Shown here: positions 569 through 20,388 of the stretch, in pieces | How positions within the stretch are numbered: position 1 is the stretch's first letter | Layout of the letters: the number at the start of each line of letters is the position of its first letter | DNA from: Candidatus Omnitrophota bacterium | Lineage (GTDB): Bacteria; Omnitrophota; Gorgyraeia; Zapsychrales; JANLHA01 | Assembly: GCA_963662715.1 (NCBI GenBank) | Contig: OY759724.1 | Location: 240,001 to 272,000 of the forward strand | Reading direction: 5' to 3' | Length of the DNA: 32,000 bases | Notes under the pieces: generated by a model | Databases searched by the model: none | Told to the model about the DNA's origin: nothing | The model's input: only the letters and a program-made list of their open reading frames with translations | Made by a program: the position numbers and the translations under genes

Positions 569-1210
569 TTAATCTTTCTGCCGGGAAGGCCCCTGCAGCT
601 TCTTTTTCAAACTCTCAAGACGCAGCTGCTGTGCCGGCTTCAATCGGCGGCTCTGCAGCATAAAATCAATCATAACCAACTGATACTCCTTATCAATAAC
701 ATGATAGTCCTGCTCAACGAGCAGAGATATAATGCTGTCAATATCCTCCCCGCGTCTTTTCGGGATTCCTAATAATGGCGGCAGATGATGAAAAGAAGAG
801 AACCTCAGGAAGAAAACTTCCAGGTCGACCTCCGGTTTTTGGACAGCCTTATCAAGATATTTCAGGCAGTCTGTCAATCCGGCAAGTTTCTTCTGCGGAT
901 TAAAAGCGAATTTAGCCTGCAGCCCCCGCAATGTTCCGTAATAAGCCAGAACAATAGCCGGGTATTCTTCCGGCTCCCCCGGGAATCTTTTCTGAATATA
1001 CGCCATCAATTCATCCGTCATCATTGAATTCTCTAAGGCTTGCGAGAGTTGTTCTTTTAAATAAAGCCGCGCTTCCCGGATATCGGCGGACACGGCCCCT
1101 TCCTGCCGGGGAAGCTGTCGGGGGCTGACCGTAGCCGCTGAAGACCTCACGACAAGCAAACTCAATATCCCGATCAACCATACCTTGATCTGCCCGTCAT
1201 ATCTTTTCAT
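569..1210 (-). CDS. hypothetical exported protein
   Basis: 213-aa ORF with an N-terminal hydrophobic signal-like segment (KVWLIGILSLLVVRSSAA). The rest looks helical. No family recognised. Confidence 0.55.
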   Translation of the reverse strand: MKRYDGQIKVWLIGILSLLVVRSSAATVSPRQLPRQEGAVSADIREARLYLKEQLSQALENSMMTDELMAYIQKRFPGEPEEYPAIVLAYYGTLRGLQAKFAFNPQKKLAGLTDCLKYLDKAVQKPEVDLEVFFLRFSSFHHLPPLLGIPKRRGEDIDSIISLLVEQDYHVIDKEYQLVMIDFMLQSRRLKPAQQLRLESLKKKLQGPSRQKD

Positions 1211-1316
1211 AAATGTCCGGTGTCTTCCCTAAAAAACATATATTACGGGCCGGCATGTTCAAAACTGAGCCCGACAAAAAATCCCGGCTCAGGGCCCATC
1301 TTCCTCTGTTTTGCAA

Positions 1317-1349
1317 AACGCCGCAACTTTGCTCAAAAGTTACGGCGTT
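1317..1349 (-). terminator. putative rho-independent terminator closing the rSAM operon
   Basis: Minus strand reads AACGCCGTAACTTT-TGAGC-AAAGTTGCGGCGTT followed by TTGCAAAAC. This is a 14-bp stem with one G-U pair, and the U-run partly overlaps the stem. It lies 36 nt after the stop of the 1385..1804 gene. Confidence 0.45.
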
Positions 1350-1384: not shown

Positions 1385-1804
1385 CTATGATGATTCTCCT
1401 TTCGGACGCAGAAGAAACAAAACCAAAGCGACGATGAAAACAAAGATACCGTTCTGCCATATCCTGGCATAAGGGACATTGAAGGCCTGATGAATAGCAG
1501 GAGCAAAGGCGAATCTCTGCAGACTACGCAATAAAAGCCACAGGATATTTCCGTAGATAATCACCTTGTATTTAACCGGGTCTTTATACGCAAAATACGC
1601 CATAAAGGCAATCGCCATAAGGTAACACCCCATCATCTGCAGGATATAATATGTCTGGGGGCTGGCCTGGGTCAGCGTTGCCCCATACAAAGCAGCCCCG
1701 ACTTTCACCGCCAAAGGGCCGGAAATAAAGCAGATGAGGCCTAAGGCCATATTAACAACAAAGACCCATCCCAACATGAACCGAAGGACAAGATGTTGTT
1801 TCAT
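1385..1804 (-). CDS. small integral membrane protein (about 4 TM), last gene of the rSAM operon
   Basis: 139 aa, with four hydrophobic stretches visible (LGWVFVVNMALGLICFISGPLAV, YYILQMMGCYLMAIAFMAYFAY, IIYGNILWLLL, NGIFVFIVALVLFLL). It starts 61 nt downstream of the GH3 gene. Confidence 0.6.
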   Translation of the reverse strand: MKQHLVLRFMLGWVFVVNMALGLICFISGPLAVKVGAALYGATLTQASPQTYYILQMMGCYLMAIAFMAYFAYKDPVKYKVIIYGNILWLLLRSLQRFAFAPAIHQAFNVPYARIWQNGIFVFIVALVLFLLRPKGESS

Positions 1805-1865
1805 GATCCCCTCCTTTTTAATAGGGCATTTTGATAGATATACACTTATTATGACCTAAAAAATA

Positions 1866-3644
1866 TTATTTTAAATAAAAACCCGAAAATTCTCTGACAA
1901 GATCTTCAAAAGGCACTAAAGCGGCTGTTTTAATGTCTCCTAATTTCTGACCTTGCCCCTGACAAAAACGCAGATATTTCTCCTGAATACGTTCTTCCGG
2001 ATCGATAAGGAACAAACGGCACGGACGGAGCTGCCCCAGCTGACGGCAATACCGGTAATGAAAATTCTTCTGCAGTCTTTCTTCCAGGTCCTCAAGAACG
2101 CTTTCCAAATCCCGGTATTCCTGCGGCTCTAACTGTATCAATAAAACATACCTGGCCGCCTGCCGGGACGGGAATCTTTCCGGGATAACTGTGTAAAATT
2201 TGGGATGAAGAGAATATTTCCGGAAAATTTCTTTCAACTGCAGGTCAACGAAACAGGCATTCATTTTTTCTCCGAACAAATCTATAACCCGGTCTTCTTT
2301 ACCGACAAAACGAATGAGCGGGCACTGCCGGAAGAACCCGACCACCTCAATCACATCTCTTAAGCGGTAACGATAAAGTCCTCCCCCTGTCGTTATGACG
2401 ACCGAATATCTCCTGCCTTCTCGCAGTTCGTGGGCCAAGCGAATGCCCGGACTTTCCGGGGGCCCGGATGAGCCGGAACGATCGTGTTCAATGAATTCAA
2501 AAAAATGCGAATGAATCGCCAGGGCGCTTCCCGGATGCCCGGCGAGCGGGAAAGAAACAAGCCCCTCTGTTGCGAGCAAGCCTTTGGGTTGGATATGAAC
2601 ATGCGGGAACCATGTTTTCAGTTCTTCCAGGGCGGTCCCGGCATGCCCGTCGGCCCAGCAGCTGATCACGTGCATATGCGGCCAGATTCTTTTCAGCAAG
2701 ACCGCTCTTGCGGCAACGGGACTTTCGCTGTCAGGGAATTCCTTAAAAATATCAGCCAATTCTCCCGCTCTTCTCTTATCGGCTTTTAAATACCGGTATA
2801 GCGCGGCGCGGGTGTCCTGATCGATATCAATAGCAGGGTTGATTTGTCCCCAGCGGATATCCAGGATGAAATCCCCGGCATATGTCCCGATGCAGCCTAA
2901 CAACAAGGATAAAAAAGACGGATTCCAAACAGAAATGAAGGAAAGGTCTTTCTCCGCCAGCAGGAATAAAACCGTGACATAGCGGAACGCGTCAATATGT
3001 TTTATCCGGCTGACCTCCCCAGGGACAGCCAGAAGTTTTTCGATCAATCTTTTTTCAAAACCGCTTAAATAATCACTATCATGACGGAATCCGACCGGGA
3101 TACGGCTCTCCGGAGAATCAAACTCAATGGCCGGGCTGATGGACCAGTAAGCCTTCCCGAAAAGCAGCTGAGGATGCTGCCGGTAAAGATCATAAATCCA
3201 CGGCCGTATGCCGTTTAAAAATTCCTGCTTCAGGCTTTTGGTGTAAGGGATTAATTTTGACGCTTCTGCGGATCCACTGGAAGGTTCAAGCAAGAAAACC
3301 GGGTCCCCTGTCAGGACCTGCGGCTCTCCGGCCAGGATCCTTTCAATGTAAGGCATAAATGACTGATAGGTCGCTAACGGGACATGCGCGCGGAAATCCG
3401 GGATACGGCGGACAGCGGAAAAAGAATGCTCCGCCCCGAAAATTGTGGAACGGCTGCGGGCGATAATGCGCCTTAAAATATCTTCCTGCCTCTTGGCCAC
3501 GGCCCGGCAGCCGAACCCGAACCTCACGGCGGGGAGCCAGCAGATAAGGACCCATAAGCTGTTCAGCAAAAAATAATAAAGTCTAAGACAATTCAAGGGC
3601 GGCCACCTTTTGTTCAGGGAGATCCCGGGCCGAGGCCTCCGCAT
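1866..3644 (-). CDS. GH3-family acyl-adenylate-forming amido synthetase (bacterial GH3 auxin-responsive-promoter family)
   Basis: 592 aa of typical bacterial GH3 length and layout: FG..HSF...IPDFRAHVPLATYQSFMPYIERI, then SSGSAEASKLIPYT (the AMP-forming P-loop-like motif), then YRYRLRDVIEVVGF. The maximal ORF overlaps the upstream rSAM gene by 62 nt. A TTG at 3596 preceded by AAGGTGG is a more plausible start. Confidence 0.8.
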   Translation of the reverse strand: MRRPRPGISLNKRWPPLNCLRLYYFLLNSLWVLICWLPAVRFGFGCRAVAKRQEDILRRIIARSRSTIFGAEHSFSAVRRIPDFRAHVPLATYQSFMPYIERILAGEPQVLTGDPVFLLEPSSGSAEASKLIPYTKSLKQEFLNGIRPWIYDLYRQHPQLLFGKAYWSISPAIEFDSPESRIPVGFRHDSDYLSGFEKRLIEKLLAVPGEVSRIKHIDAFRYVTVLFLLAEKDLSFISVWNPSFLSLLLGCIGTYAGDFILDIRWGQINPAIDIDQDTRAALYRYLKADKRRAGELADIFKEFPDSESPVAARAVLLKRIWPHMHVISCWADGHAGTALEELKTWFPHVHIQPKGLLATEGLVSFPLAGHPGSALAIHSHFFEFIEHDRSGSSGPPESPGIRLAHELREGRRYSVVITTGGGLYRYRLRDVIEVVGFFRQCPLIRFVGKEDRVIDLFGEKMNACFVDLQLKEIFRKYSLHPKFYTVIPERFPSRQAARYVLLIQLEPQEYRDLESVLEDLEERLQKNFHYRYCRQLGQLRPCRLFLIDPEERIQEKYLRFCQGQGQKLGDIKTAALVPFEDLVREFSGFYLK

Positions 3645-4938
3645 AATACCTGACTAATCTTCTGGAGTGGTGGCGGAAACTGAAACTCGCGGGCACTGTC
3701 ACCCATGGCAAATGGGGATGAAAAAGCGTTCTTCGCATGATGGATTTCAACGAATAGGTATGCGTCCAGAGCCACGAGAGACCATTCTGCAGCTGTTCGG
3801 GCGTCATGCGTGCGGGCTGAAACACCGCGTGTTCATAATCATATTTGTCCCAGTCATGGTGAAGGATTCTGCCGCCGGCCGTTAATTCTTGGTAAACAGC
3901 CGTTCCGGGAAAAGGGGTGAAGATCGTATAACGCACCAGATCTATTTTGACTTTATTAACAAATTCCAGGGTCCGTTCAAAAACCGAAGGGTCGTCTTCG
4001 TCAAAACCCAGGATGATGCACGCCATAACTCCAATTCCGTAATCATGCAGTTTACGGACAAGCGTCTGATATTTCTTCACCTGATTAAACCCTTTACTCA
4101 TTCTCCGCAGAGACGCCTGGGAAATGGTCTCGAAGCCCATCAACAGCCCCCGGCATCCGCTCCGGACAGCCAGGGAAAGCAGTTCATCATTTTCCGCGAT
4201 CTTGACCGTTGATAAACCGACCCATTTCACCTGCAGCGGGATCATGGCCTCATATAAGCTTTTCGTATAATGCAGATCTTCCGTCGGGCTCGGGTCAAGA
4301 AAAATAAAAGGCCCTCCTTCCATGCTTCGCATTTCCCGCACGACCTCTTCAACCGGCCTCTTGTAATAACGCAATCGTCTGGCCACAGGGACAGCGCAGA
4401 AGTGACACGTGTTCGGACAGCCTCTTGTGGCCATGATCGTCTGGGTTGTTAAATACCGGTCTTTTTTCAATAAATCCCTCCGGGGGTGCGGAAGTCCGGC
4501 TAAATATGTCTCGGGCTGATCGTCATAATACTTTCTCAACTGCCCTTTCTGAAAGTCCCGCAACAGCCGCGGCCAGCTCTTTTCGGCAAAACCAATAACG
4601 ACACAGTCAGCATGTTCAGCCGCCTCCTGAGGCAGGACCGTCGGATGCACCCCGCCCAAAACAACCGGGATGCCCCCGGCTCTTATTTTATCCGCCAAAA
4701 AATATGCCCGGGGGGCGGTCGCAGTACACGCGCTGATGCCTACGATATCGGCGTCCAGGTCCTCAGGCAGTTCTTCGACCCCTTCATCGACAATCCGGAC
4801 AACGGCATTCAATTCTTCGGGGACCAGGGCCGCCAAAAGCGTCAAGGTCAACGGCGGGTAAAGAATAGACCGGGTAAAGCTTCCGTCCCGGAACCTGTAT
4901 GTCGAATCGTAAGGTAAAATAAGAACAATTTTCAACAA
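3583..4938 (-). CDS. B12-binding domain radical SAM protein (class B rSAM), paralog 4
   Basis: N-terminal Rossmann-like B12 module (IVGISACTATAPRAY...VVLGGVHPT) followed by the radical SAM cluster motif CPNTCHFC. The start is a TTG (4938, or 4935 with AAGGAG upstream). Confidence 0.85.
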   Translation of the reverse strand: MLKIVLILPYDSTYRFRDGSFTRSILYPPLTLTLLAALVPEELNAVVRIVDEGVEELPEDLDADIVGISACTATAPRAYFLADKIRAGGIPVVLGGVHPTVLPQEAAEHADCVVIGFAEKSWPRLLRDFQKGQLRKYYDDQPETYLAGLPHPRRDLLKKDRYLTTQTIMATRGCPNTCHFCAVPVARRLRYYKRPVEEVVREMRSMEGGPFIFLDPSPTEDLHYTKSLYEAMIPLQVKWVGLSTVKIAENDELLSLAVRSGCRGLLMGFETISQASLRRMSKGFNQVKKYQTLVRKLHDYGIGVMACIILGFDEDDPSVFERTLEFVNKVKIDLVRYTIFTPFPGTAVYQELTAGGRILHHDWDKYDYEHAVFQPARMTPEQLQNGLSWLWTHTYSLKSIMRRTLFHPHLPWVTVPASFSFRHHSRRLVRYYAEASARDLPEQKVAALELS

Positions 4939-4954
4939 AAGCTCCTTATGATTT

Positions 4955-5674
4955 TCAAACGACGCTTTCCCCCATCACCTTGTAGGCGGCACGCTTCAAA
5001 TTATCTTCGGATATTTCCGCCAGGCAAACCAGCTCATCACCCAGACCATAATGAGGATTTTGGTTTAAAAAATACCGGACGTGAGGATTCCGCCGTCTTC
5101 TGTCATCGATGTCCGCCACGCCTTCTTTTAATCGCTCTCTGGACTGCTCAAAATGAATGACGCCGGTTTCCGCGTTATACTGCGACCCGAATCTTGCGTA
5201 AGCCAAAGTGTCCATCACCTGTTTTTCAAAGCCAGGAATGACCTGACCATGGCAGGGATAAAATCTCTTAAAATACACCGGCAAAAACCGGTATGTCTTA
5301 TACCCCATGCTAATAAGAAACCAGTAAAACTTCGGGAATGAATATTTTCTCCGCAGAGAGAGCATAAACTCAAGCCACACTCTTGCCAGCTCGCTGTCAC
5401 CCCAGAATTCTCTTTCTATGATCGTGTCCCCGGAAAAGACCGCCCACACGTTTTGCCCGAGGACCTCCTCCTGCATTAACCGCAGCGTTGAAAATCCGCG
5501 GATACACTGAGTGTCCTTATCCCGCAAAAGAATAACCCAGTCCTTTTCTTCCATATCCCGGGAGAAATTTTCCGCAGAGACATTTTCAAAATACGCCGCC
5601 AGTATTTCAAACATCCTCTGCTTCTCCTGCGGCAACAGCTCGGCAATATTCACAACACGCCCTTGGAGTTTCAT
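4955..5674 (-). CDS. hypothetical protein, possibly an acyltransferase (GNAT-like) fold
   Basis: 239-aa ORF with GAGGGG 6 nt before the ATG, in tight operon spacing (32 nt from the upstream gene and 16 nt to the downstream gene). The strand-then-helix pattern (WVILLRD...IRGFSTL...AVFSGDTII...ELARVWLEF) suggests a GNAT-like core, but I cannot name a family. Confidence 0.5.
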   Translation of the reverse strand: MKLQGRVVNIAELLPQEKQRMFEILAAYFENVSAENFSRDMEEKDWVILLRDKDTQCIRGFSTLRLMQEEVLGQNVWAVFSGDTIIEREFWGDSELARVWLEFMLSLRRKYSFPKFYWFLISMGYKTYRFLPVYFKRFYPCHGQVIPGFEKQVMDTLAYARFGSQYNAETGVIHFEQSRERLKEGVADIDDRRRRNPHVRYFLNQNPHYGLGDELVCLAEISEDNLKRAAYKVMGESVV

Positions 5675-5706
5675 GGTCGCCCCTCAATCCGGCAAAGGTC
5701 CGGTTA

Positions 5707-7047
5707 TTAGGTGAAGGCAAAAATACCTTTTTGTTTCAATAACATTTTAATCCCGACATTATGCACCAGGAGAGGCCAACGGTAAGGCCCGCTCCTTTTC
5801 GTTCTGTGAAGAATGGACCGTAAAGTCATCATCTGGGCTAAAAGTTCTTCTATGGCTGTCTGCAAAGACCTGCTGCCGGAAAAATTTTCATTCCGAATAA
5901 GGGCATAAGGGTTGTGTTTTTTCAGCCAGAACTTTTCATCCGTAAGCAGCCGCCGCCGCTTCAACGTCCGGTAAACCGGGGTCCCGGGGAAAGGATACAA
6001 GGGATTGAGCACAATCATCGGCACGGAATGTTCCGTTAAAAATCTTTTCGTCTGCACGAAAGTTTGTTCATCATCTTCCAGGAACCCCAGAATCATTCCC
6101 AAAACAAGAATGATCCTGTGCTTCTCCAGCCTCCTTAACACCGCCGAAAAATCCTGCGCCGTGTTGAATCCTTTATTAACCGAATTCAACGATTCGTCAT
6201 TAATGCTTTCCAGCCCCACAAAAACGGAATAGCAGCCAGAGCGGGATGCCGAGGCAACAAGCTCCTCGTCCTGACAGGATTGATAGGAAAAATATCCCGA
6301 CCAGTGAATACGGAGCGGCCGAAGGCTCTCGAATAAGCGCATGGCCCGGTCTTTTGACGTTGTCAAATTATCATCAACAAAAACAAAAAGCGGCTGCCTG
6401 ATCCCCGGATAATCTTTGAGGAAGCGTTTTATATCCTCAACGACCTCCTTTATGGGCCGGTACCGGATCCCCCCCCGGTAGACCTCAGGGGTACAGCAAT
6501 ACGCGCAATGATTCACGCAGCCCCGCGAAGTTTCTAAAGGAATTTTAGTCCCGTAAAAAGCGCTGTACAACTTCAAATTCAACAAATCAAAACGGGGGAA
6601 CGGCATCTGCTGCATGGAAAAACGTTCCGGAGAAAGATACCGCTGTTTCACGCAGCCGGATGCAAAATCGTTCCAGAACGCATCCCAGGAGGTTTCGATC
6701 TCTCCGCAGATGACCGCGTCGGCGAATCCGGCCGCCTCATCCGGACAGAGATTGACATGGTAACCGCCCAAGAGGACGAAGACACCCCTCTTCCTGAATT
6801 CCGCAGCCACCTCATACGCTCTTTGAGCCTGCGGTGTTTTAACGGAAATACCAACCAAATCATAAGGGACATCAAAATCAATATCCTGCAGGGTTTCATC
6901 AATAAGCGTGATATCCGCTTCCCGCGGGAAAAAAGAAGCCAAATACGGCAGGATGAAACTGGGGCACAAGCCTTTTTTGTGCCTCGACTTGTAAAGCCTG
7001 CCGGTTTGAAAATTATAATGTCCGGGCTGAACTAAAAGAATTTTCAT
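5707..7047 (-). CDS. B12-binding domain radical SAM protein (class B rSAM), paralog 3
   Basis: MKILLVQPGHYN..., LVGISVKTPQAQRAY, VLLGGYHVN, and cluster motif CVNHCAYC. The ATG at 7047 has AGGAAAC upstream and lies 10 nt after the stop of the preceding gene. The track's 7140 start would overlap that gene by 83 nt. Confidence 0.85.
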   Translation of the reverse strand: MKILLVQPGHYNFQTGRLYKSRHKKGLCPSFILPYLASFFPREADITLIDETLQDIDFDVPYDLVGISVKTPQAQRAYEVAAEFRKRGVFVLLGGYHVNLCPDEAAGFADAVICGEIETSWDAFWNDFASGCVKQRYLSPERFSMQQMPFPRFDLLNLKLYSAFYGTKIPLETSRGCVNHCAYCCTPEVYRGGIRYRPIKEVVEDIKRFLKDYPGIRQPLFVFVDDNLTTSKDRAMRLFESLRPLRIHWSGYFSYQSCQDEELVASASRSGCYSVFVGLESINDESLNSVNKGFNTAQDFSAVLRRLEKHRIILVLGMILGFLEDDEQTFVQTKRFLTEHSVPMIVLNPLYPFPGTPVYRTLKRRRLLTDEKFWLKKHNPYALIRNENFSGSRSLQTAIEELLAQMMTLRSILHRTKRSGPYRWPLLVHNVGIKMLLKQKGIFAFT

Positions 7048-7057
7048 CGTGTTTCCT

Positions 7058-8164
7058 TTACAATGTCGCCAGTTCAATATAAGGGATCCGTGAATCCAAA
7101 CCTTGAAAATCCCTGTCGCCGTCGGGCCAGCAGGCAACATAAACCCGGCTGCCTATCTTCAGGTTCGGGAATACGGCAACGGATTTATTCAAGGGGTCGT
7201 TTTCGTGCAATCCGATCATCATAAAATCATAACCCTTATTTAAGAATTCCCCAGCGGCCTCACGCAACAATGCTGTACTGACTTCTTGCCGGTCCTCTGT
7301 CACGGCAAGCCAGCTGACATAAAAATACCGGAAAGAGTCTCCCGCCCGGGGCCACACAGGATAGCCTTTCTGTTTCGCCCAGAAATTATAGAGCGGCCGG
7401 ATGAATTTCATCCTGCCCTGATATTGATGCACAACAATCTGTTTAAAACGGCTTTGATCCCAGCAGGCGCAGACGCCCAGGATCCGGTTGTTTTCTACGG
7501 CAATAAGAAAATTTTCGATCTTCAAATCCCGCAACAACGGCCCCGACGTTTTAAAATTTTCCTTATCAAAGAAGGGGAAAAACTGCTTGCGGGGTCCCTC
7601 CCGGCCCAGATAGGCCTCCACCTGGTCCAGCATGTCCGGGGAACCTTTGGTAATCTTTATCCCCGTCGGAGGAAGTTTCTTATGCGCCAGGGGGATAACA
7701 TAGGTATTCAGCTGACCGATATCATGATAATGCGGTAAGCCGGCCCGGCCGGAAACCAGGACCTCTTTGACGCGGGTGTTGTCGGCCATAATTGTGGTGA
7801 GATAAATCCGGGCGCGTTTATCTTCATGCAATTGCTTTAAGAAATGATACCCGCGGCCTAAAATCAGCCGGTTCCGGCAAGCCCGGCTGATACGCAAACT
7901 CCCCAAATATCCGACCCGGCTCAGTTTCCCGTTGACAAAGACTTCTCTGACTGAACGGCTGGCCAAACCGACAATCTTACCCGCCGCCTGATCCCGGACG
8001 ACAATCGTCTGATTCCATACCCCTTCCGTACAGGCAGCCTGAAAGTAATTCGGTTCGCGGGTGAAAAGCAGCGAGACCTCTCCCTCCATAGGGGACGCCT
8101 GAAGCAGAGCCCTGAGCTGGGCATCATCTTTCTCGCGAGCCAATTCAAAATGAAAACGGGCCAT
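7058..8164 (-). CDS. GNAT-family acyltransferase-like protein, apparently two-domain
   Basis: 368 aa. The N-terminus (ELAREKDDAQLRALL...IVGLASRSV...GYLGSLRISRACRNRLILGRGYHFL) fits a GNAT core with an R-x-x-G-x-G-like CoA loop. The C-terminal half looks like a second degenerate acyltransferase-type domain. Confidence 0.65.
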   Translation of the reverse strand: MARFHFELAREKDDAQLRALLQASPMEGEVSLLFTREPNYFQAACTEGVWNQTIVVRDQAAGKIVGLASRSVREVFVNGKLSRVGYLGSLRISRACRNRLILGRGYHFLKQLHEDKRARIYLTTIMADNTRVKEVLVSGRAGLPHYHDIGQLNTYVIPLAHKKLPPTGIKITKGSPDMLDQVEAYLGREGPRKQFFPFFDKENFKTSGPLLRDLKIENFLIAVENNRILGVCACWDQSRFKQIVVHQYQGRMKFIRPLYNFWAKQKGYPVWPRAGDSFRYFYVSWLAVTEDRQEVSTALLREAAGEFLNKGYDFMMIGLHENDPLNKSVAVFPNLKIGSRVYVACWPDGDRDFQGLDSRIPYIELATL

Positions 8165-8174
8165 AAAATTATCC

Positions 8175-9500
8175 CTAATTCAATCCTTTCCCCAAAGGCA
8201 GGCCCTGACGTTTGTCGACCTCTCTCCCGGAGAAAAAATTATATAAAATATAGTTCCATAACATAGAAACACCGTGACAGTTGCTGCGGGCGTCAAACCG
8301 TTGGGATATGGACCGGACAGAATAAAACTGCTGCCTGGCTCTCAGGCAGGCCCGGGAAAGATCCTCGGCCGACATTTTCCGGGGATGGAAAGCCACATCT
8401 CCGAATTTGTACCGAGGATCGAGCCACCAGTTGTCAGACAACAACCGTCCCTCAGACTTGAAATGACGATACAAAGGTGTCCCGGGAAACGGGACAAGGT
8501 GATTAAACGCCGCCAAAAACATTTTCTGCTTTATCGCAAACTCCAGCGTTTCTTGAACCGTATCCAGGGTGTCTTGATCATATCCGAAAACAAAAGTCCC
8601 GTAAATCACAATTCCGTGGTCCCGGAATCTCTGCAAAGCCTGCTCATAGGATCTGTATTGCAGGTTCCATTGTTTTCCCATTTGCGTCAAATTCTTCTGA
8701 TCCAACGACTCAAATCCCATTAAAACCCCCAGACAGCCGCTGGCTTTCATAAGAGTCAGCATACTCTCGTCATTCGCCATATCAATGCTCCCCTGGCTGA
8801 TCCACTTGATGTTCAACGGGATCAGGGCCTGAAAGAGCTGTTTCGCCCGCTGAGGATCACAGGTGATATTATCGTCGACAAAAAAGACGATGCTCTTACC
8901 TATCTGCCGGATCTCCTCAATGATTTCAGGGATGGGCCGGGGCCGGTATGTATGCCGGAAGAAACTGCTTACAGAACAAAACTGGCATGCATAAGGACAC
9001 CCCCTTGCCGATTCAATAAGCGTAACGGGAAGATACGTCTTCCGGTTAAAAATCGTTCTCTTGGCCCGGCATCCTTTCAGGACAGGGGCATCGTTCCTCT
9101 GATAAACGGTTCTCAATTGTTTGGCCCTGGCGTCTTCACAAATCTGTTCCCAGATGCCTTCGGCCTCGCCTATCAGAATGGCATCCGCATGCCGCCCTGC
9201 TTCCTGGGGAACGAGCGTCGGATGATATCCGCCCAGAACAACCGGAACGCCCCTTTGCCGGTATTCCCGGGCAATATGATAACTTCTTTTCGCCGTATAC
9301 GTTTCTACGTTGACGGCGACGAGATCCGTGGCCTCATCATAAGGGATGGGCTCAATCCTGTCATCGTAAAACCGGACCTCTATATCCTCAGGCGTTAATC
9401 CGGCCAACAGGGCTAAAGCCAGAGGCTCCATCTTCCATGACCTGACATACGGTTCATGATTTTTCCTGCCGACAGCAGGCATGATCAGAGTGATCTTCAT
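8175..9500 (-). CDS. B12-binding domain radical SAM protein (class B rSAM), paralog 2
   Basis: MKITLIMPAVG..., LVAVNVETYTAKRSY, VVLGGYHPT, and cluster motif CPYACQFC. The stop lies 10 nt before the next gene's ATG. Confidence 0.85.
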   Translation of the reverse strand: MKITLIMPAVGRKNHEPYVRSWKMEPLALALLAGLTPEDIEVRFYDDRIEPIPYDEATDLVAVNVETYTAKRSYHIAREYRQRGVPVVLGGYHPTLVPQEAGRHADAILIGEAEGIWEQICEDARAKQLRTVYQRNDAPVLKGCRAKRTIFNRKTYLPVTLIESARGCPYACQFCSVSSFFRHTYRPRPIPEIIEEIRQIGKSIVFFVDDNITCDPQRAKQLFQALIPLNIKWISQGSIDMANDESMLTLMKASGCLGVLMGFESLDQKNLTQMGKQWNLQYRSYEQALQRFRDHGIVIYGTFVFGYDQDTLDTVQETLEFAIKQKMFLAAFNHLVPFPGTPLYRHFKSEGRLLSDNWWLDPRYKFGDVAFHPRKMSAEDLSRACLRARQQFYSVRSISQRFDARSNCHGVSMLWNYILYNFFSGREVDKRQGLPLGKGLN

Positions 9501-9536
9501 AAATACAAGCCCTTTCCGGCTCGGGATATTGAAACA

Positions 9537-10874
9537 TCAGGACATCCTCCTGCCCGGAGATATTTTTATTTCTGCGGGGAAACGGTCCTGATCAACGGAT
9601 AAACGATGGATATACAGCCTGTAAGCCAGATTGCCGACGAATTTAACCATAAAGGACCGGTCCAGCCCGCTGACTCTTTTCCAAATGGAAGGATATTGAA
9701 AAGTCTTCCGGTAAGCCCAGCGAAACCCCTGGTCGAGTTCCTGCGGGCTCATCTGTGAGGGCTGAAAAACAACGTGCTGCGTATCATAATAGGACCAATG
9801 ATTGTGAAGGATCCGCCCCTCTTCCTTGAGTCTTTGATAGGCCCTTGTTCGGGGATACGGCGTGTAAACGGCGTATCGCGGGATGTCGATTTTCAGTTCA
9901 TTGACAGCGTCAACCGTATCCTTGAAAACATTCCGGTCGTCATGGTCAAAACCGAACACAAAGCATCCCTGCAGAATTATGCCTTTATCATGAATTTTCT
10001 TAACCAGGTCCGCGTAATTCTGCGGACGGTTAAAACCTTTTTTTATCCCATACAAGGCTCTTTGGGAAACCGACTCGAATCCGATCAATAAATAAATACA
10101 TCCGCTGCGGCTCATCAACTCAAGCAACTCGTCATCCTGGCCTATCTCCGTTGTACATAAGCCCCCCCAGACTTTTTTCAAAGGGGCGAGCGCTGTGAAA
10201 AGCTCCTTCGCGTAATCCCGGTCTTCCAGCAGACTCACATCATTAAAAGCAATCCTCCGGGCTTTGATCTGCCTGATTTCGTCAATCACTTCGTGAACAG
10301 GACGCGTGTTCCATCCGAAAGGAACCGCACTGACCGCGCAAAAGTCGCAGGACCGTCTGCATCCCCGGGTAGCGAAAACGGTATAGGGATTCATGTAGCC
10401 CCACTGTTTCTGCAAGTCTCTTCGTGGACAGGGCAGGCCGGAAAGATGCGAGTCGTGAGACTCATATACATCTTTGAGTTTTCCGCAAGAAAAATCCCGG
10501 AGCAATTGAGGCCATGTCTGTTCAGCAAAACCGAGCACAATACTGTGGGCATGCTGTCCCGCCTCCTGAGGCATCAGGGAAACATGGACCCCGCCCAAAA
10601 CAACCGTCGCGCCCCGCCGCCGGAAGTGGCCAGCAAGGGCATACGCTCTGACAGACGTGCCCGTCAGGCAGCTTATGCCGACCAGATCAAAATCCTGCTT
10701 CAGCGGGACAGCCTCAAGGCTTTCATCTATAATTGTGACCTCGGCATTCAATTCAGGAGGGACCAGCGCGGCTAATGTCGTAAGCGTCAACGGCGCTTCG
10801 CGAAAAGACACCGCATGTCCCCCTATATTCATTTTATGGATACCGGCATCCGGCATTATTAACAAAATTTTCAT
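9537..10874 (-). CDS. B12-binding domain radical SAM protein (class B rSAM), paralog 1
   Basis: MKILLIMPDAG..., LVGISCLTGTSVRAY, VVLGGVHVS, and cluster motif CRRSCDFC. The track start at 10880 is a TTG two codons upstream of the ATG at 10874. Confidence 0.85.
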   Translation of the reverse strand: MKILLIMPDAGIHKMNIGGHAVSFREAPLTLTTLAALVPPELNAEVTIIDESLEAVPLKQDFDLVGISCLTGTSVRAYALAGHFRRRGATVVLGGVHVSLMPQEAGQHAHSIVLGFAEQTWPQLLRDFSCGKLKDVYESHDSHLSGLPCPRRDLQKQWGYMNPYTVFATRGCRRSCDFCAVSAVPFGWNTRPVHEVIDEIRQIKARRIAFNDVSLLEDRDYAKELFTALAPLKKVWGGLCTTEIGQDDELLELMSRSGCIYLLIGFESVSQRALYGIKKGFNRPQNYADLVKKIHDKGIILQGCFVFGFDHDDRNVFKDTVDAVNELKIDIPRYAVYTPYPRTRAYQRLKEEGRILHNHWSYYDTQHVVFQPSQMSPQELDQGFRWAYRKTFQYPSIWKRVSGLDRSFMVKFVGNLAYRLYIHRLSVDQDRFPAEIKISPGRRMS

Positions 10875-10923
10875 AGGCAACTCTTGTCGATATCTGTTAT
10901 CCCAACGGGGTGAAATCTTATAA

Positions 10924-10935
10924 TTGACATATCAA
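10924..10935. promoter_or_regulatory. 12-bp near-palindromic box TTGACATATCAA (candidate MarR operator) in the marR-rSAM spacer
   Basis: The exact 12-mer is repeated, as its reverse complement, at 11463-11474 in the marR promoter. On the minus strand this copy sits between TTGAAA and TATAAG hexamers, just upstream of rSAM paralog 1. Confidence 0.4.
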
Positions 10936-10951
10936 TCTTTCAATAAAAACA

Positions 10952-11425
10952 TCAGGCACTTTTAACTTCCGAAATCCATTTCATAAGCAGGGCATCAAAT
11001 GTCTTCTGCTCGGCTTTTGTCAACAGCGAACCCAGACGCCTCAGAACCTTCTGATACCCCGGCCAGACGCTGTCCAGCAGCCGGCCCCCTCTTTCGCTGA
11101 TTTTAATAATATTGGCTCTTCTGTCATTCTTGTTAGAGATACGATGCACCAGCTTCTCTTTTTCCAGCTTATCTAACAGCCGCGTCATATTCGACGGGGT
11201 AACAATCAAATGTTTGCTGATCTCCACCTGACTTATTCCACTGCTTCCTCCCTGATGCTTGATGGTCATTAAAACGTTGAATTTAGCCGGAGTCAGCTCA
11301 TAGGGCTTCAGGAAAGACGAGATTTCCCCGTTAATCAGATTATATAATAAGACAATACCGTATATGGCCTCTTCATGATACTTCCCCTGCCCGACTTCAA
11401 TACCAAACGACCTGAAATAGTCCAT
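10952..11425 (-). CDS. MarR-family transcriptional regulator
   Basis: Winged-helix region LTPAKFNVLMTIKHQ...ISQVEISKHLIVTPSNMTRLLDKLEKEKLVHRISNKNDRRANIIKISERG. The ATG at 11425 is 5 nt after AGGAGG; the track's GTG at 11431 overlaps that SD. Confidence 0.85.
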   Translation of the reverse strand: MDYFRSFGIEVGQGKYHEEAIYGIVLLYNLINGEISSFLKPYELTPAKFNVLMTIKHQGGSSGISQVEISKHLIVTPSNMTRLLDKLEKEKLVHRISNKNDRRANIIKISERGGRLLDSVWPGYQKVLRRLGSLLTKAEQKTFDALLMKWISEVKSA

Positions 11426-11445
11426 AGTCACCTCCTTTCGATATT

Positions 11446-11474
11446 AGTTTACAATACAATTATTGATATGTCAA
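11446..11474 (-). promoter_or_regulatory. marR promoter (TTGACA-17-TAAACT) with the TTGACATATCAA box overlapping the -35
   Basis: Minus strand reads TTGACA tatcaataattgtattg TAAACT, then about 9 nt, then AGGAGG. The 12-mer box spans 11463-11474. Confidence 0.5.
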
Positions 11475-11536: not shown

Positions 11537-12535
11537 TTAAAGGGCGGGTGCCGGGGCGGCTTTACGGACAGCGTCAAACAACAAAACATCGACAAAAGAT
11601 TTCAACAATTCGCCTGCCGGCTCTTCCAACAGCAGAGAGTCGACCTGAGCATGGCAATAATCTCTCTTCTCTTTCAGAGAGGCCTGCTGATGAGGGGGGA
11701 AAACATCCTGGATATCTACAATGGCGCGGACCAGCCGGCCCATTTTATCTTTAGGAATCCCCATTTTTTCTGAATAGATATTCATCCACTGTTTATATTC
11801 GTTTAATGAATTTTGAATTTCCAGAGAATCCCCGCTCTTAATTGCGACCAACGCCTTCTCACTTAAAACAAAAGCATGCCCCTGATAACCGTTCTTAACG
11901 AGTTGATCATATCTTTCCTGTTCCTGATCCGGCATCCCGGGGCTGTGTCTCAGCTTCTTTAATCCCTGATAAAATTCCCCCTGATTCATCAATTGCGCCG
12001 CTTCCCGGAACATGCCCTGATAATCAGGTCCGGCCCGGCTTTCCCTTCTTAACTTTTCTACTGAGTCAACAACACTGACTTTGGACACGGCAAACCACTG
12101 AAGCACCGAAATAACAATCCCGAAAGAAATGATCATCGTCAGGCTGTTCCTTTTTCTTAAGGAACGGGCATCCCACGGGATCCGTTCGACCTGCATGGCC
12201 TTTTGCAACTTACCGCTCAAAGAAAAAAGCCTGGTTATAACGAAAAGGTTAAAAAGAGGGATACACGCGCCCACAAGCCAGGCGGCCGGAGCATGTGCCG
12301 TTAATCGGTTTTTGATCAGCAAGCCGCTGAGCTGACTGGTATATACAAGAAAATTAAAATAGATAAAGGATAAGCCGGCACTGAGATACTGCCATTCTTT
12401 CTGGGAGAATCCTCTCTGGATGGCAAAAAAGACGATAATAAAGACGAAAACCACGCAAAGGATCAACGCCTTGCAGAAATTCCTATGCGCATCAACATAC
12501 TGCTCCTTTTCCCTGGCCTCAAATTCCGGCATCAT
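11537..12535 (-). CDS. hypothetical membrane protein (N-terminal TM bundle, C-terminal soluble helical domain)
   Basis: 332 aa with several hydrophobic helices in the first ~150 aa. No family recognised. Confidence 0.55.
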   Translation of the reverse strand: MMPEFEAREKEQYVDAHRNFCKALILCVVFVFIIVFFAIQRGFSQKEWQYLSAGLSFIYFNFLVYTSQLSGLLIKNRLTAHAPAAWLVGACIPLFNLFVITRLFSLSGKLQKAMQVERIPWDARSLRKRNSLTMIISFGIVISVLQWFAVSKVSVVDSVEKLRRESRAGPDYQGMFREAAQLMNQGEFYQGLKKLRHSPGMPDQEQERYDQLVKNGYQGHAFVLSEKALVAIKSGDSLEIQNSLNEYKQWMNIYSEKMGIPKDKMGRLVRAIVDIQDVFPPHQQASLKEKRDYCHAQVDSLLLEEPAGELLKSFVDVLLFDAVRKAAPAPAL

Positions 12536-15265: not shown

Positions 15266-15694
15266 CTAAAATTCTATCTGCGTTTGTCCTCGGTCTTCCC
15301 GGCCTTGATATTCGATGTATCGCTTTATCGATTCTTCGTCGGCTCCAACCGTTGACACAAAATACCCTGCTGACCATATCCCTGCCTTTTTCACATACAT
15401 CTTGTCTAAAAACTTATATCGCCGCCTCATCAGCTTTGCTGTGTTACTCTTAATCAGATTTACTGCATGACTTACAGCCATCTTCGGCGGAATTGATGCC
15501 AAAAGATGCATATGATCTAAATCTGTATTTACTTTTTCAATGATGATCTCAGGATACCGTCTCATCACTCCCAAAACGCATCTTTTGACATACTCCGCCG
15601 AACCCCATCGCAATATCTTTCGCCTATATCTTGTACAAATGACAATATGGTATCTGGCATAGTAAACTGTGTGTCCTTGCTTCAAATATCTCAT
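15266..15694 (-). CDS. tnpA: IS200/IS605-family Y1 (HUH) transposase
   Basis: 142 aa: YHIVICTRYRRKIL, HUH motif DHMHLL, and catalytic-Tyr region GYFVSTVG. Confidence 0.9.
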   Translation of the reverse strand: MRYLKQGHTVYYARYHIVICTRYRRKILRWGSAEYVKRCVLGVMRRYPEIIIEKVNTDLDHMHLLASIPPKMAVSHAVNLIKSNTAKLMRRRYKFLDKMYVKKAGIWSAGYFVSTVGADEESIKRYIEYQGREDRGQTQIEF

Positions 15695-16599: not shown

Positions 16600-19500
16600 T
16601 TATTCTGCTAGCATAAGCTGCGCTTGGGCGGTTTCCTTTTTGCCGGCTTGATCCATAACAGATATCTGCACAGTCCATTCCCTGCCGCCTCTCAAATGTG
16701 ATTCATCAATACGCATAACCCAGTCATTCTGCGCCTGGCTTTTAAAAGGACCGCCGACCTTTTTAAACCGCTTGGCCTTTTTGCCCCTTCCCACACCTAT
16801 CGTAAACTCCTGAAACGGACCGCGCACGGTCGCAAAAACATCCACGTAATCGATCCTTCTCTTCCGCTCCTGTTTCTGTATCCTTAACTCATTAATCCTA
16901 ACAGTTATTAAACCTTCAGGAGCTGTTCTTAAGGCTTCTGAAGCATTTAATAAGCCGGCCCCGGACTGATCGTCCCAGCCGGGGGAATACATGTCAACGG
17001 CCGTGGCCGTGAGGATATCTTCAATCTGCTCGTTCGTAAAGGCAGGATTATGCGCCAGCATCAAAGAAGCGGTCGCAGCAACCATCGGGGAGGCAAAAGA
17101 CGTTCCCGATTGAGTATAATACAAAGCGTTGCTTCCTTTATACCGTCCTTTTTTAAATGAATCCACGGAACGCAACGAATACACGTCTTCCCCCGGGGCA
17201 AGTAACCCATTATTAGCCCCCCAGTTGGAAATTGGGCTTCTCTCCCCGTTCATATCCAAAGATCCTACCGGGAAAATCCCTTTGGCAGAAGCCGGGCCGT
17301 GTTCCGAGATATTCTCGTTCACATTGCCGCTGGCGACTGTTATAAACGCGCCTTGTTCATAGGCCGCATTGATGGCCGCCTGTTCCATTTCAGAAACACC
17401 GCGGTTCCCCAGGCTGATATTTATCACCCGGGCTCCGTGATTGACCGCATAACGGACCGCACGGTAAATATTAAGGCTTGTGGCCTCTCCCTCTTCGTCA
17501 GCAACTTTCAGAGGCATAATGACAGCCCCGGGATTAATGCCGGCTATCCCGATTTGGTTATCCGTTTTAGCCGCAATAATACCGGCCACAAATGTCCCGT
17601 GACCTTTACGGTCGGTCAAATCATTGCTATTATCGATGAAGTTCCATCCGTGCACGTCGTCCACATACCCGTTAAGGTCATCATCCCGACCGTTTCCGGG
17701 GATTTCATTCTCATTCGTCCAGATATATTCCGGGCCGTCGGGATGCGTCATATCCAATCCGGAGTCGATGACCGCGACCAGGACATTCTTCTCCTGCCCG
17801 TCAATAACATTCCAGGCCGAATCAGGATCCGACTTAGGCGTAAAGCCGATTACGGATAAACCCCATTGATTTTCAACATCTTTTTTCTTTCCCCCTCCCG
17901 ATATCTCTCCAAACCCCAAGTTCAAACCACCTTCCGGTTTACTGCCCCCGAATATCCCCAGGAGCTTTTTCTTTTTTGCCTTTTGGGGTCCCAGGAAAAA
18001 CGGATCATTGGGGGTCTCCAAAGAAACGGCCTGATTCTTTTTCTTCCTGCGCTGCTCCAATTCCGAAGGACGAGGTTCGACTATTTTGCTGACTAATGTA
18101 CTTACCGCCTGTTTTAATAGTCCCTGAGGAGCAACCTTTTGAATATATTCGACAATACTCTGGGCCTGGCCGGCTTTCTCCAAGGCTTCCAAAATCGCTG
18201 CCGGGTTATTCTTAAGCTCTTCCTGAGAAATATTCCTTGCCAGAGAACCATCAGCGCCAAAAACAGCAAGAGCATTCTCGCCATTTGTTTTCCCGCAGGC
18301 CAAAACAGGGCCGTCGACCTGAATCTGCCGGGACGCATCCTGCCCGTACTCAGCAGAACCTGCGCCCGTATCTCCGGATATTTCCGGAGGGGTCTTCCCA
18401 AAATTTCTAACAGTAAAGCCGCTGAAACAATCATCGGTGTAATGTCGTTTCTCTCCCAATCCCTCCGCAAGAAGGCCGGCCATATCCTCAAGGGTCCCGA
18501 CCGTAACCTTTCCGCCGGTCAAGGCAGCCAATTTTTCAATCTCTGCCAGTTCTTGAGCGTTGACTTTAGCTAAAGCCATAACTGATTTCGGCGAGAAATT
18601 TTTTAATGACACCGGATCAAAATCCTTATTTAAAACAAAACGTGGCAACAGCGTTTCTATAACTACGGCCGCATAGGTGGCCTTGAACTTTTTGATATCA
18701 AAACACAGATGACAATCTTCGCCGCGGGGGATACACATCTGGTCAAGAGAAGCCTCTTCCTTTCCTGCGCCGGGGTAGAGTGCCGGGGTAGGGGTTGCGA
18801 GGGGCATCTGCCGCGAAGGATATTTACACGTACCCGGACAGGGCCCGCTTCTTAAATGACGTTCCAGACAGGAATCCTGCTGCTGAAGCTTAGGCTCACA
18901 GGTATGGCAGAACACCCCGTGAACCATGGTCTCCTCGCATCTTTCTGTCTGCCTGCGACACGTCCCGGGGCATGGCCCCACATACATCTCGTATTCGTCA
19001 CATGCCTGATCAGCGAGTCTTTTAGGGATACACAGATGGCAGGATGCCTCATCGACATAAGTCTTCATGCATACTTCCGTAGCGGCATTACAGGCAGGAC
19101 AGGGGCCGGGCAACATGTCGCCCTTCTCACATTCGTTTTTGGCTTCCTTGGGAGCACGGCACTGGTAACAATACCCCTCGGCCACACAAAGATAAAGTTT
19201 TTGACAGTTTTCCTCCTTGCATAATCCGACTTTCCAGCCGTCATAACACTCGATTCCTTTTATTTTACACTCATGACACACAGCTTTTCCCACACTCCCG
19301 TCCACACAGTAATGGCCCTCATCGATCTTGCAAGAGCCGGGACAACTGCCGGGAAAAAGCTCGCATTCCGCGCAAACATCTTCCTGGTCATCCGTCCGTT
19401 CTTTACACTGATAACACGGGCCATCGATGGGAAGGCACATCTCTCCTTTCGCACATGTCCCGTCCAAACAAAGCCCCGGCACATAGCCGACCGGGCAGTT

Positions 19501-20388
19501 GACCGAAGGCCAGCATCTATGGCAGTTTTCCCCCTCGACGGAAAAATTATCACAATTTTCACCCGTTTTACACGAGCCAGGACACAGACCGGCAAACATA
19601 TCCTTTTTCTGGCACTTTGCGGCCTGCCCCTCTTTTATACACTCCCAGCACGGCTTATCAAAATCATCTGTTCTTCTGCGGACACACTTTCCTTTATCCT
19701 TACACACCGCCCAGCACGCGTCATAATCCCCCGGGTAGCCGAGGTCAGAACAGGTCTTTTTGGGGGCACAGGCATGGCAGGCCGCGCCGTCCACCGGGAT
19801 GTAGGAACACTTCTCCTTGGCCTTGCTACATGTCCCGGGACATGATCCCGGCAGCAGTTCACGCTGTCCGCATTTGGCTTTGTCTTCTTCCCCCTTTTTG
19901 ACGCATTTTTTACATTGAAGTCTATATCCCGGGGGGGTATAAGAAATACAGGCCATGTCCTTACGGTCGCAGGTACTGCAATGGGAACCGACATCATCAC
20001 CAAAGTCGTAACACGACTTGCCTTTATCCATCGAGAGACATTCGCAGCAATAGGTTCCGTCTTTTATAACAACCGTAGAACAGTACGTCCCGGACTCATA
20101 ACAGGAGGCTTTTTTCCCCTTGGCCTCACATTTTTCTTTCAGGGTTTTCCCTATACATTTGTCAGCCGCCTCATCACACTCCTGGCCGGATTCACAGGGG
20201 ATATCCAGCTTCTGATAACATTTCCCGTTAGCCGCACAAAATTCCGTCCCGTTACAAAACAGGCCGTCATCGCAGTCCGGATCATTCACACATTTTTCTT
20301 TGGACGCATGCTGATCCCCCCAGGAGTGGGCAGGACATAATAAAGAGGAAAAGAATACCAGGGATAATACCAGAAAGAATTTCTTCAC
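16600..20388 (-). CDS. secreted subtilisin-like (S8) serine protease with a long N-terminal array of Cys-rich modules
   Basis: GTG start with GGAGGG 7 nt upstream, and a signal peptide (MKKFFLVLSLVFFSSLLCPAHS). Residues ~33-563 are Cys-rich repeats. The S8 triad motifs are VAVIDSGLD (D875, nt 17764-17766), HGTFVAGIIAA (H930, nt 17599-17601) and SGTSFASPMVAA (S1096, nt 17101-17103). Confidence 0.85.
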   Translation of the reverse strand: MKKFFLVLSLVFFSSLLCPAHSWGDQHASKEKCVNDPDCDDGLFCNGTEFCAANGKCYQKLDIPCESGQECDEAADKCIGKTLKEKCEAKGKKASCYESGTYCSTVVIKDGTYCCECLSMDKGKSCYDFGDDVGSHCSTCDRKDMACISYTPPGYRLQCKKCVKKGEEDKAKCGQRELLPGSCPGTCSKAKEKCSYIPVDGAACHACAPKKTCSDLGYPGDYDACWAVCKDKGKCVRRRTDDFDKPCWECIKEGQAAKCQKKDMFAGLCPGSCKTGENCDNFSVEGENCHRCWPSVNCPVGYVPGLCLDGTCAKGEMCLPIDGPCYQCKERTDDQEDVCAECELFPGSCPGSCKIDEGHYCVDGSVGKAVCHECKIKGIECYDGWKVGLCKEENCQKLYLCVAEGYCYQCRAPKEAKNECEKGDMLPGPCPACNAATEVCMKTYVDEASCHLCIPKRLADQACDEYEMYVGPCPGTCRRQTERCEETMVHGVFCHTCEPKLQQQDSCLERHLRSGPCPGTCKYPSRQMPLATPTPALYPGAGKEEASLDQMCIPRGEDCHLCFDIKKFKATYAAVVIETLLPRFVLNKDFDPVSLKNFSPKSVMALAKVNAQELAEIEKLAALTGGKVTVGTLEDMAGLLAEGLGEKRHYTDDCFSGFTVRNFGKTPPEISGDTGAGSAEYGQDASRQIQVDGPVLACGKTNGENALAVFGADGSLARNISQEELKNNPAAILEALEKAGQAQSIVEYIQKVAPQGLLKQAVSTLVSKIVEPRPSELEQRRKKKNQAVSLETPNDPFFLGPQKAKKKKLLGIFGGSKPEGGLNLGFGEISGGGKKKDVENQWGLSVIGFTPKSDPDSAWNVIDGQEKNVLVAVIDSGLDMTHPDGPEYIWTNENEIPGNGRDDDLNGYVDDVHGWNFIDNSNDLTDRKGHGTFVAGIIAAKTDNQIGIAGINPGAVIMPLKVADEEGEATSLNIYRAVRYAVNHGARVINISLGNRGVSEMEQAAINAAYEQGAFITVASGNVNENISEHGPASAKGIFPVGSLDMNGERSPISNWGANNGLLAPGEDVYSLRSVDSFKKGRYKGSNALYYTQSGTSFASPMVAATASLMLAHNPAFTNEQIEDILTATAVDMYSPGWDDQSGAGLLNASEALRTAPEGLITVRINELRIQKQERKRRIDYVDVFATVRGPFQEFTIGVGRGKKAKRFKKVGGPFKSQAQNDWVMRIDESHLRGGREWTVQISVMDQAGKKETAQAQLMLAE

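Follow-up and report, generated by a model that had tools for sequence, protein, structure and literature searches.

A conserved, uncharacterised biosynthetic cassette of GH3, GNAT-fold and B12 radical SAM proteins in an Omnitrophota genome

Results

Gene content of the operon

We analysed 32,000 nucleotides of the Candidatus Omnitrophota contig OY759724.1 (assembly GCA_963662715.1, positions 240,001 to 272,000), hereafter the window, in which nine co-directional open reading frames (ORFs) occupy positions 1385-11474 of the minus strand. A marR gene is followed by eight tightly packed genes, which encode four B12-binding radical SAM proteins (rSAM1 to rSAM4), two orphan GNAT-fold proteins (GNAT368 and P239), an acyl-acid amido-synthetase of the GH3 family and a small membrane protein, TM139 (Table 1). 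Our main conclusion is that this nine-gene operon is a real, widely conserved and uncharacterised biosynthetic cassette. The initial annotation of the window had described eight co-directional genes behind a MarR gene, separated by gaps of 36, 10, 10, 32 and 16 nt, an overlap and a gap of 61 nt, and closed by a hairpin. All the genes lie where that annotation had placed them, every spacing was reproduced from the ORFs of the window, and the hairpin is present, with a second one beyond it.

The four radical SAM proteins show pairwise identities of 30-47%, the value for rSAM1 and rSAM4 being 47%. Pfam Radical_SAM and B12-binding match all of them, the B12-binding match of rSAM3 lying slightly below the cut-off (29.1 versus 32.1 bits). 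The cluster motifs CRRSCDFC, CPYACQFC, CVNHCAYC and CPNTCHFC are present, along with the GIS/VNV and VVLGG[VY]H stretches. An N-terminal B12-binding domain, a radical SAM core and a CxxxCxxC motif, which together mark class B enzymes, are found in all four proteins, and their original description as paralogous B12-radical SAM enzymes is borne out by the Pfam matches and the motifs.

The assignment of one gene product to the GH3 family proved equally sound: its N, M and C Pfam domains scored 157.7, 73.8 and 34.3 bits, the cut-off being 23.6. The nucleotide-binding motifs SSGSAEASK, ATEG and GLYRYRLRD align to those of AtGH3.15 (SSGT..K, YGSSE and GLYRYRxGD), the second being degenerate with its Glu kept. 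The best PDB sequence matches are plant GH3 structures, with E about 1e-18. Judging from its upstream region, the gene most likely starts at a TTG codon (3596) behind AAGGTGG, which gives a 14-nt overlap with rSAM4 and a 576-residue form identical to the public protein P0242. The subfamily comprises more than 3,235 matches, all named 'GH3 auxin-responsive promoter family protein' or hypothetical. Ahead of the Pfam GH3 domain stands a conserved hydrophobic N-terminal helix (consensus ANxLWxLLC; window 3530-3596, relatives P0243-P0281), which may act as a membrane anchor.

Pfam gave no match for GNAT368, P239 or TM139 of the window, and profiles of the GNAT368 and P239 families found no sequence relative in the PDB; Acetyltransf_1 was matched by 11 of 22 GNAT368 relatives. 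According to structural models, P239 has a single GNAT fold (predicted local distance difference test score 94.0) and GNAT368 a tandem GNAT fold (91.4), each with a Foldseek probability of 1.0 to GNAT structures. The models thus support what had been proposed for both proteins, namely a possible acyltransferase fold for the 239-residue one and a two-domain GNAT-like architecture for the 368-residue one. Between the core of P239 and the N-terminal half of GNAT368 there is a remote relationship (hhalign probability 81%). The best full-length structural matches of GNAT368 are N-myristoyltransferases and mycobacterial MAB_4324, with template modelling (TM) scores of 0.59-0.66 (0.60-0.66 for the N-myristoyltransferases) and sequence identities of 11-14%; the Pfam family NMT does not match GNAT368. 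The chain end of the GNAT368 family (...PYLELGxL) is conserved: 117 of 118 full-length relatives stop at one position, 113 of those with Leu, and the window protein ends in ...PYIELATL.

TM139 had been called a protein with four transmembrane segments. It is a membrane protein, but a hydropathy scan revealed three strong hydrophobic segments, the fourth staying under the threshold. No Pfam family matches it even at E = 10, and one relative matches DUF4345 weakly.

Table 1. Features of the operon, in window positions
Feature	Position	Strand	Description
marR promoter-like site	11446..11474	-	TTGACA, 17 nt, TAAACT
Box 1, TTGACATATCAA	11463-11474		Covers the -35 hexamer of the marR promoter-like site
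marR	10952-11431	-	MarR-family regulator; Pfam MarR 51.9 bits
Box 2, TTGACATATCAA, reverse orientation	10924-10935		In the spacer of the second promoter-like site
Second promoter-like site, between marR and rSAM1	10915..10943	-	TTGAAA, 17 nt, TAAGAT
rSAM1	9537-10874	-	B12-binding radical SAM, rSAM1/4 orthogroup
rSAM2	8175-9500	-	B12-binding radical SAM
GNAT368 (368 aa)	7058-8164	-	Orphan tandem-GNAT protein
rSAM3	5707-7047	-	Divergent B12-type radical SAM
P239 (239 aa)	4955-5674	-	Orphan single-GNAT-fold protein
rSAM4	3583-4938	-	B12-binding radical SAM, paralog of rSAM1
GH3 (576 aa)	1866-3596	-	Acyl-acid amido-synthetase
TM139 (139 aa)	1385-1804	-	Small polytopic membrane protein
Two terminator-like hairpins	1261..1349	-	1317-1349; 1265-1292 then UUUU

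A core of three genes recurs across phyla

We searched 20 genome loci (seeded with GNAT368, from a 7-sequence alignment), 80 metagenome loci (seeded with P239) and a number of single look-ups with the window proteins. Adjacency in the P239-seeded set was counted in the 31 loci that extend 3 kb or more to either side. GH3 was adjacent in 29 of these and GNAT368 also in 29, counts that are not fully independent because several soil contigs are near-identical; among the GNAT368-seeded genome loci, P239 and GH3 were both adjacent in 13 of 13. These loci show that the core of the cassette is formed by P239, GH3 and GNAT368, often accompanied by TM139, relatives of which were found in 17 loci. P239 is the most widespread core member, with more than 1,146 matches among 90%-identity clusters, and the GNAT368 family, clustered at 50% identity, counts 1,870 representatives (E <= 1e-30).

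Carriers of the cassette belong to at least six phyla and include members of Planctomycetota, Omnitrophota, Nitrospirota, Chloroflexota and Clostridia; Gemmataceae, Pirellulales, Sedimentisphaerales, Dehalococcoidales, Omnitrophota, Nitrospirae, Ktedonobacteraceae, a Clostridiales metagenome-assembled genome (MAG) and Sericytochromatia are among those named. The nearest relative (L021, 48-72% identity) has the eight genes of the window in the same interleaved order and at the same chromosomal site, without marR. The genes that flank the cassette in other loci are not conserved. The grouping of GH3, GNAT-like and radical SAM genes, which the initial annotation had proposed from the window, is therefore strongly co-conserved across phyla. 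That unrelated units stand side by side by chance is scarcely credible, and we reject this explanation because synteny is conserved across phyla: the gene order is kept across at least six of them, a gene fusion joins two of the components, and the genes are spaced as translational coupling would allow.

The radical SAM genes are one of two tailoring sets

The radical SAM genes of the cassette fall into two conserved orthogroups, the rSAM2-type and the rSAM1/4-type, while rSAM3 was seen only in the window and in L021. In most radical SAM loci the rSAM2-type gene lies directly upstream of GNAT368, and in six it lies on the opposite strand beyond GH3. On the 352-kb Dehalococcoidales MAG contig CAYVOV010000001.1, a single 817-residue ORF (L014:8654-11107, identical to P0366) fuses an rSAM2-type protein to a tandem GNAT, the N-terminal part being 48% identical to rSAM2 of the window.

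Of the 31 P239-seeded loci, 13 have radical SAM genes alongside the triad. In most of the remaining ones there are instead a Rieske/VanA_C oxygenase, an FG-GAP protein, FA_hydroxylase or FA_desaturase, cytochrome P450 and MatE; variants from soil metagenomes have fatty-acid hydroxylase, desaturase, P450, Rieske and MatE genes instead of radical SAM genes. A protein of 940-1040 residues, present in 17 of the 31 loci and belonging to the oxygenase variant, combines an RnfD/NQR2-like membrane domain, FG-GAP repeats and UnbV_ASPIC (L062:5799-8909, L102:6129-8960). In a few planctomycete loci, radical SAM genes are found together with a desaturase and a PAP2_3/PAP2_C protein. The loci thus show the B12 radical SAM genes, with their two orthogroups, to be one of two alternative, swappable tailoring sets. 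The four radical SAM enzymes named in the initial annotation are present, but their genes are accessory tailoring genes that stand outside the core triad. TM139, on the other hand, is kept in cassettes of either kind, radical SAM or oxygenase. Two loci carry tandem copies of its gene immediately upstream of the radical SAM genes (L034:4002-4833, L054:1513-2347).

In a Nitrospirae locus (L107:14-3409), a 1131-residue MFS-PlsC-AMP-binding fusion, which is Aas/LplT-like, ends 4 nt before the first cassette radical SAM gene. MatE or RND exporters adjoin several cassettes.

The best NCBIfam matches of the radical SAM proteins were HpnJ, ladder_B12, BchE and PhpK, with best scores of 93-112 bits against cut-offs of 360-650, and the GH3 protein scored 47.8 bits with the OlsH model NF052613, the cut-off of which is 620. 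None of the equivalog cut-offs of HpnJ, BchE, PhpK, ladderane-B12, HpnR or, for GH3, OlsH was reached by the window proteins. Since these curated cut-offs are not attained, we rejected an assignment to the hpn, bch, PhpK or ladderane families. A search of the literature and databases found no curated family, solved structure or described pathway that covers the cassette, and it is absent from 2026 reviews of lipid-modifying radical SAM enzymes (PMC13459092) and of ornithine-type lipids (PMC12971839). Full-text searches yielded only the OlsH work and general reviews, apart from one 'GH3-like' match that dealt with a glycoside hydrolase. The earlier impression that the arrangement is not that of any characterised cluster is consistent with all of this.

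The tandem-GNAT fold and some of the rarer neighbours could also suit a peptide product. The cassette might acylate and radically modify a ribosomal peptide or protein encoded elsewhere, with GNAT368 acting on a peptide N-terminus in the manner of an N-myristoyltransferase and the B12 radical SAM enzymes serving as C-methyltransferases, as in proteusins. The fold of GNAT368, nearest to N-myristoyltransferases and with a conserved chain end, would agree with such a role, and so would weak NCBIfam matches to radical SAM models of ribosomally made peptides with post-translational modifications (RiPPs). A few loci offer further candidates: radical SAM-SPASM proteins in two of them, and in an Omnitrophota locus (L022:10713-14296) an M28 peptidase gene together with two radical SAM genes without a B12 domain, between P239 and GH3. 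We nevertheless consider a peptide product improbable. The conserved set lacks a leader-recognition, protease or transporter module, and the oxygenase variants carry di-iron enzymes of the lipid type. The gaps among the eight genes after marR do not exceed 61 nt, and no small ORF (20-110 residues) is common to 39 radical SAM loci, so that the reported lack of a precursor-peptide ORF was upheld. Because no precursor is conserved among these small ORFs, the reading of the operon as a RiPP cluster was rejected as improbable, the radical SAM-SPASM and M28 peptidase genes of a few loci leaving it a low probability.

Regulation and surroundings of the operon

The marR gene likelier starts at the ATG at 11425, behind AGGAGG, than at 11431. 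Both promoter-like sites coincide with a copy of the near-palindromic 12-mer TTGACATATCAA, of which there are exactly two copies in the 32 kb; two matches were obtained in 2 of 100 shuffles. The Pfam MarR domain and a candidate palindromic operator at both promoter-like sites are what one would expect of a MarR-regulated operon. In this genome, MarR would repress both promoters via the two boxes until a ligand is bound. The marR gene is absent from L021 and from the planctomycete loci, and occurs at an equivalent position only in one Omnitrophota locus (L022), where it heads the operon and encodes a protein of 38% identity. For this reason, MarR control is specific to the lineage of the window: the MarR gating proposed initially agrees with the regulator gene and the two operator-like boxes, but it is not conserved with the cassette elsewhere. 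A segment of 27 nt spanning the start codon of rSAM1 (10872-10898) is 78% identical to that spanning the start codon of marR (11423-11449), which suggests a duplicated leader or ribosome-binding region.

At the other end of the operon, the first hairpin has a 14-bp stem with one G.U pair and a short U run, and the fold z-score of the terminator region is -2.37. Neither an Rfam family nor a cobalamin riboswitch or tRNA was found in the window. The proteins encoded on either side, of 332 residues (11537-12535, minus strand) and 213 residues (569-1210, minus strand), have no Pfam match; L021 has a 332-residue gene at the position matching the former, a likeness of length and position. About 4 kb upstream of the operon there is an IS200-type Y1 transposase gene (15266-15694, minus strand; Pfam Y1_Tnp, 99.7 bits), and a 1262-residue protein (16600-20388, minus strand) has a C-terminal S8 subtilase domain behind a long N-terminal part without Pfam match.

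Discussion

From the observed gene associations we infer the chemistry of the cassette throughout. We put the chances at about even that a widespread cassette for building an amide-linked (N-acyl) lipid is present here in its oxygen-independent form, with radical tailoring. FA_hydroxylase, FA_desaturase and PAP2_3/PAP2_C are membrane-lipid enzyme families, and a lipid product is favoured because their genes and an Aas/LplT-like one occur in variant loci. The acyl-amide or lipid-like product suggested by the initial annotation gains indirect support from these neighbours, the lipid nature itself being read from context. A membrane setting is favoured because TM139 is conserved and the N-terminus of GH3 is hydrophobic, and the match between the fold of GNAT368 and the N-myristoyltransferases also speaks for a lipid. 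Fatty-acid amide chemistry is favoured because GH3 keeps its ATP motifs and because there is a precedent in OlsH, the only characterised bacterial GH3, which activates a fatty acid by adenylation and links it to ornithine (PMC12493201).

In such a lipid pathway, GH3 would adenylate a free, probably long-chain, carboxylic acid and join the resulting acyl-AMP to an amine or an amino acid (ornithine in the case of OlsH), to give an N-acyl amide. The two GNAT proteins would add further acyl groups from acyl-coenzyme A (CoA) or acyl-acyl carrier protein (ACP). The rSAM2-type enzyme would work in physical partnership with GNAT368, as their fusion in L014/P0366 suggests, and the rSAM1/4-type enzymes and rSAM3 would also act on unactivated carbons of the acyl chain, C-methylation being the likeliest reaction. 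TM139 might hold the product in the membrane or hand it over there.

The same neighbourhoods bear on a different product, a soluble conjugate. Here GH3 would, in the manner of plant GH3 enzymes, link an amino acid to an acyl acid that is aromatic or short, the GNATs would acetylate, and radical SAM enzymes or oxygenases would tailor what finally leaves the cell as a signal or metallophore. Phenolic acids are often sensed by MarR regulators, the window GH3 has its best PDB sequence matches in plant GH3 structures, Rieske/VanA_C and P450 neighbours are present in variant loci, and the adjoining MatE or RND exporters would provide a way out of the cell. We take this reading seriously but find it unlikely: lipids are indicated by FA_hydroxylase, FA_desaturase, PAP2 and the Aas/LplT-like neighbour, the membrane by the conserved membrane protein and the hydrophobic GH3 N-terminus, and fatty acids are the substrate of the only characterised bacterial GH3 (PMC12493201).

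Several points weigh against an N-acyl lipid as the product. The window operon contains no gene for fatty-acid synthesis, ACP or an acyl-CoA ligase. The likeness of GNAT368 to N-myristoyltransferases exists only at the level of tandem-GNAT architecture, MAB_4324 scoring equally. The closest solved relative of the radical SAM enzymes by sequence is AprD4, a dehydratase, and cobalamin-dependent C-methylation, their most likely chemistry, is put forward by family analogy alone. Rieske/VanA-type oxygenases and P450s count aromatic acids, the classical GH3 substrates, among their substrates too, and the radical SAM-SPASM proteins and the M28 peptidase would suit a peptide. The near-identical soil metagenome contigs mean that the locus counts overstate independence. 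Finally, a Ktedonobacteraceae locus also has the radical SAM set; therefore the split of radical SAM and oxygenase sets by oxygen lifestyle is a tendency only, and one that we infer.

It is tempting to go further and propose, with less than even confidence, that the P239-GH3-GNAT368 triad with TM139 makes an unrecognised and phylogenetically broad class of amide lipids, tailored by B12 radical SAM enzymes without oxygen and by di-iron, P450 and Rieske oxygenases with it. In anoxic sediments, the radical SAM products might then be new lipids with methyl branches or cross-links, perhaps orphan biomarkers. If the amide-lipid pathway is real, bacteria would have, after OlsHI, a second GH3-dependent route to a lipid or amide, and one that works by a distinct mechanism. 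Two sizeable protein families without a Pfam model (GNAT368 and P239) would gain a function, and the class B radical SAM enzymes would grow by new members acting on a defined small substrate. The apparent exchange of radical SAM enzymes and oxygenases around one core, should it be borne out, would amount to a clean natural experiment on modification of one molecule with and without oxygen.

The OlsH/OlsI system of the planctomycete Singulisphaera acidiphila (PMC12493201) also relies on a bacterial GH3-family enzyme, with nucleotide-binding motifs as in the window GH3; OlsH forms an amide from a free carboxylic acid and ATP, and a second acyl transfer follows. By sequence, OlsH is a distant relative of the window GH3. 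The window operon, however, has neither the OlsI alpha/beta-hydrolase nor the OlsG methyltransferase, its partners being two orphan GNAT proteins instead, and no OlsI-type alpha/beta-hydrolase O-acyltransferase is found in the operon or in the conserved set. Radical SAM tailoring, in turn, is not known from ornithine-lipid pathways.

HpnJ, HpnR/HpnP, GrsA/B, Gmm and the enzyme of the ladderane cluster modify inert lipid carbons without oxygen, and resemble the window proteins in their B12-binding and radical SAM architecture (PMC13459092). None of these lipid-modifying enzymes is linked to GH3 or GNAT genes, unlike those of the window (PMC13459092). Unlike their settings, the window operon has no hopanoid, glycerol dialkyl glycerol tetraether or fatty-acid synthase genes, and the scores of its radical SAM proteins are 4 to 7 times under the equivalog cut-offs of these enzymes.

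In N-myristoyltransferases, the C-terminal carboxylate is the catalytic base. The conserved chain end of GNAT368 recalls this catalytic carboxylate, a likeness that may serve as a lead only. Plant GH3 enzymes (AtGH3.15, JAR1, PBS3) have the three Pfam GH3 domains and the ATP motifs in common with the window GH3, whereas the bacterial subfamily is set apart by its hydrophobic N-terminal helix and by its place beside GNAT and radical SAM genes in one operon.

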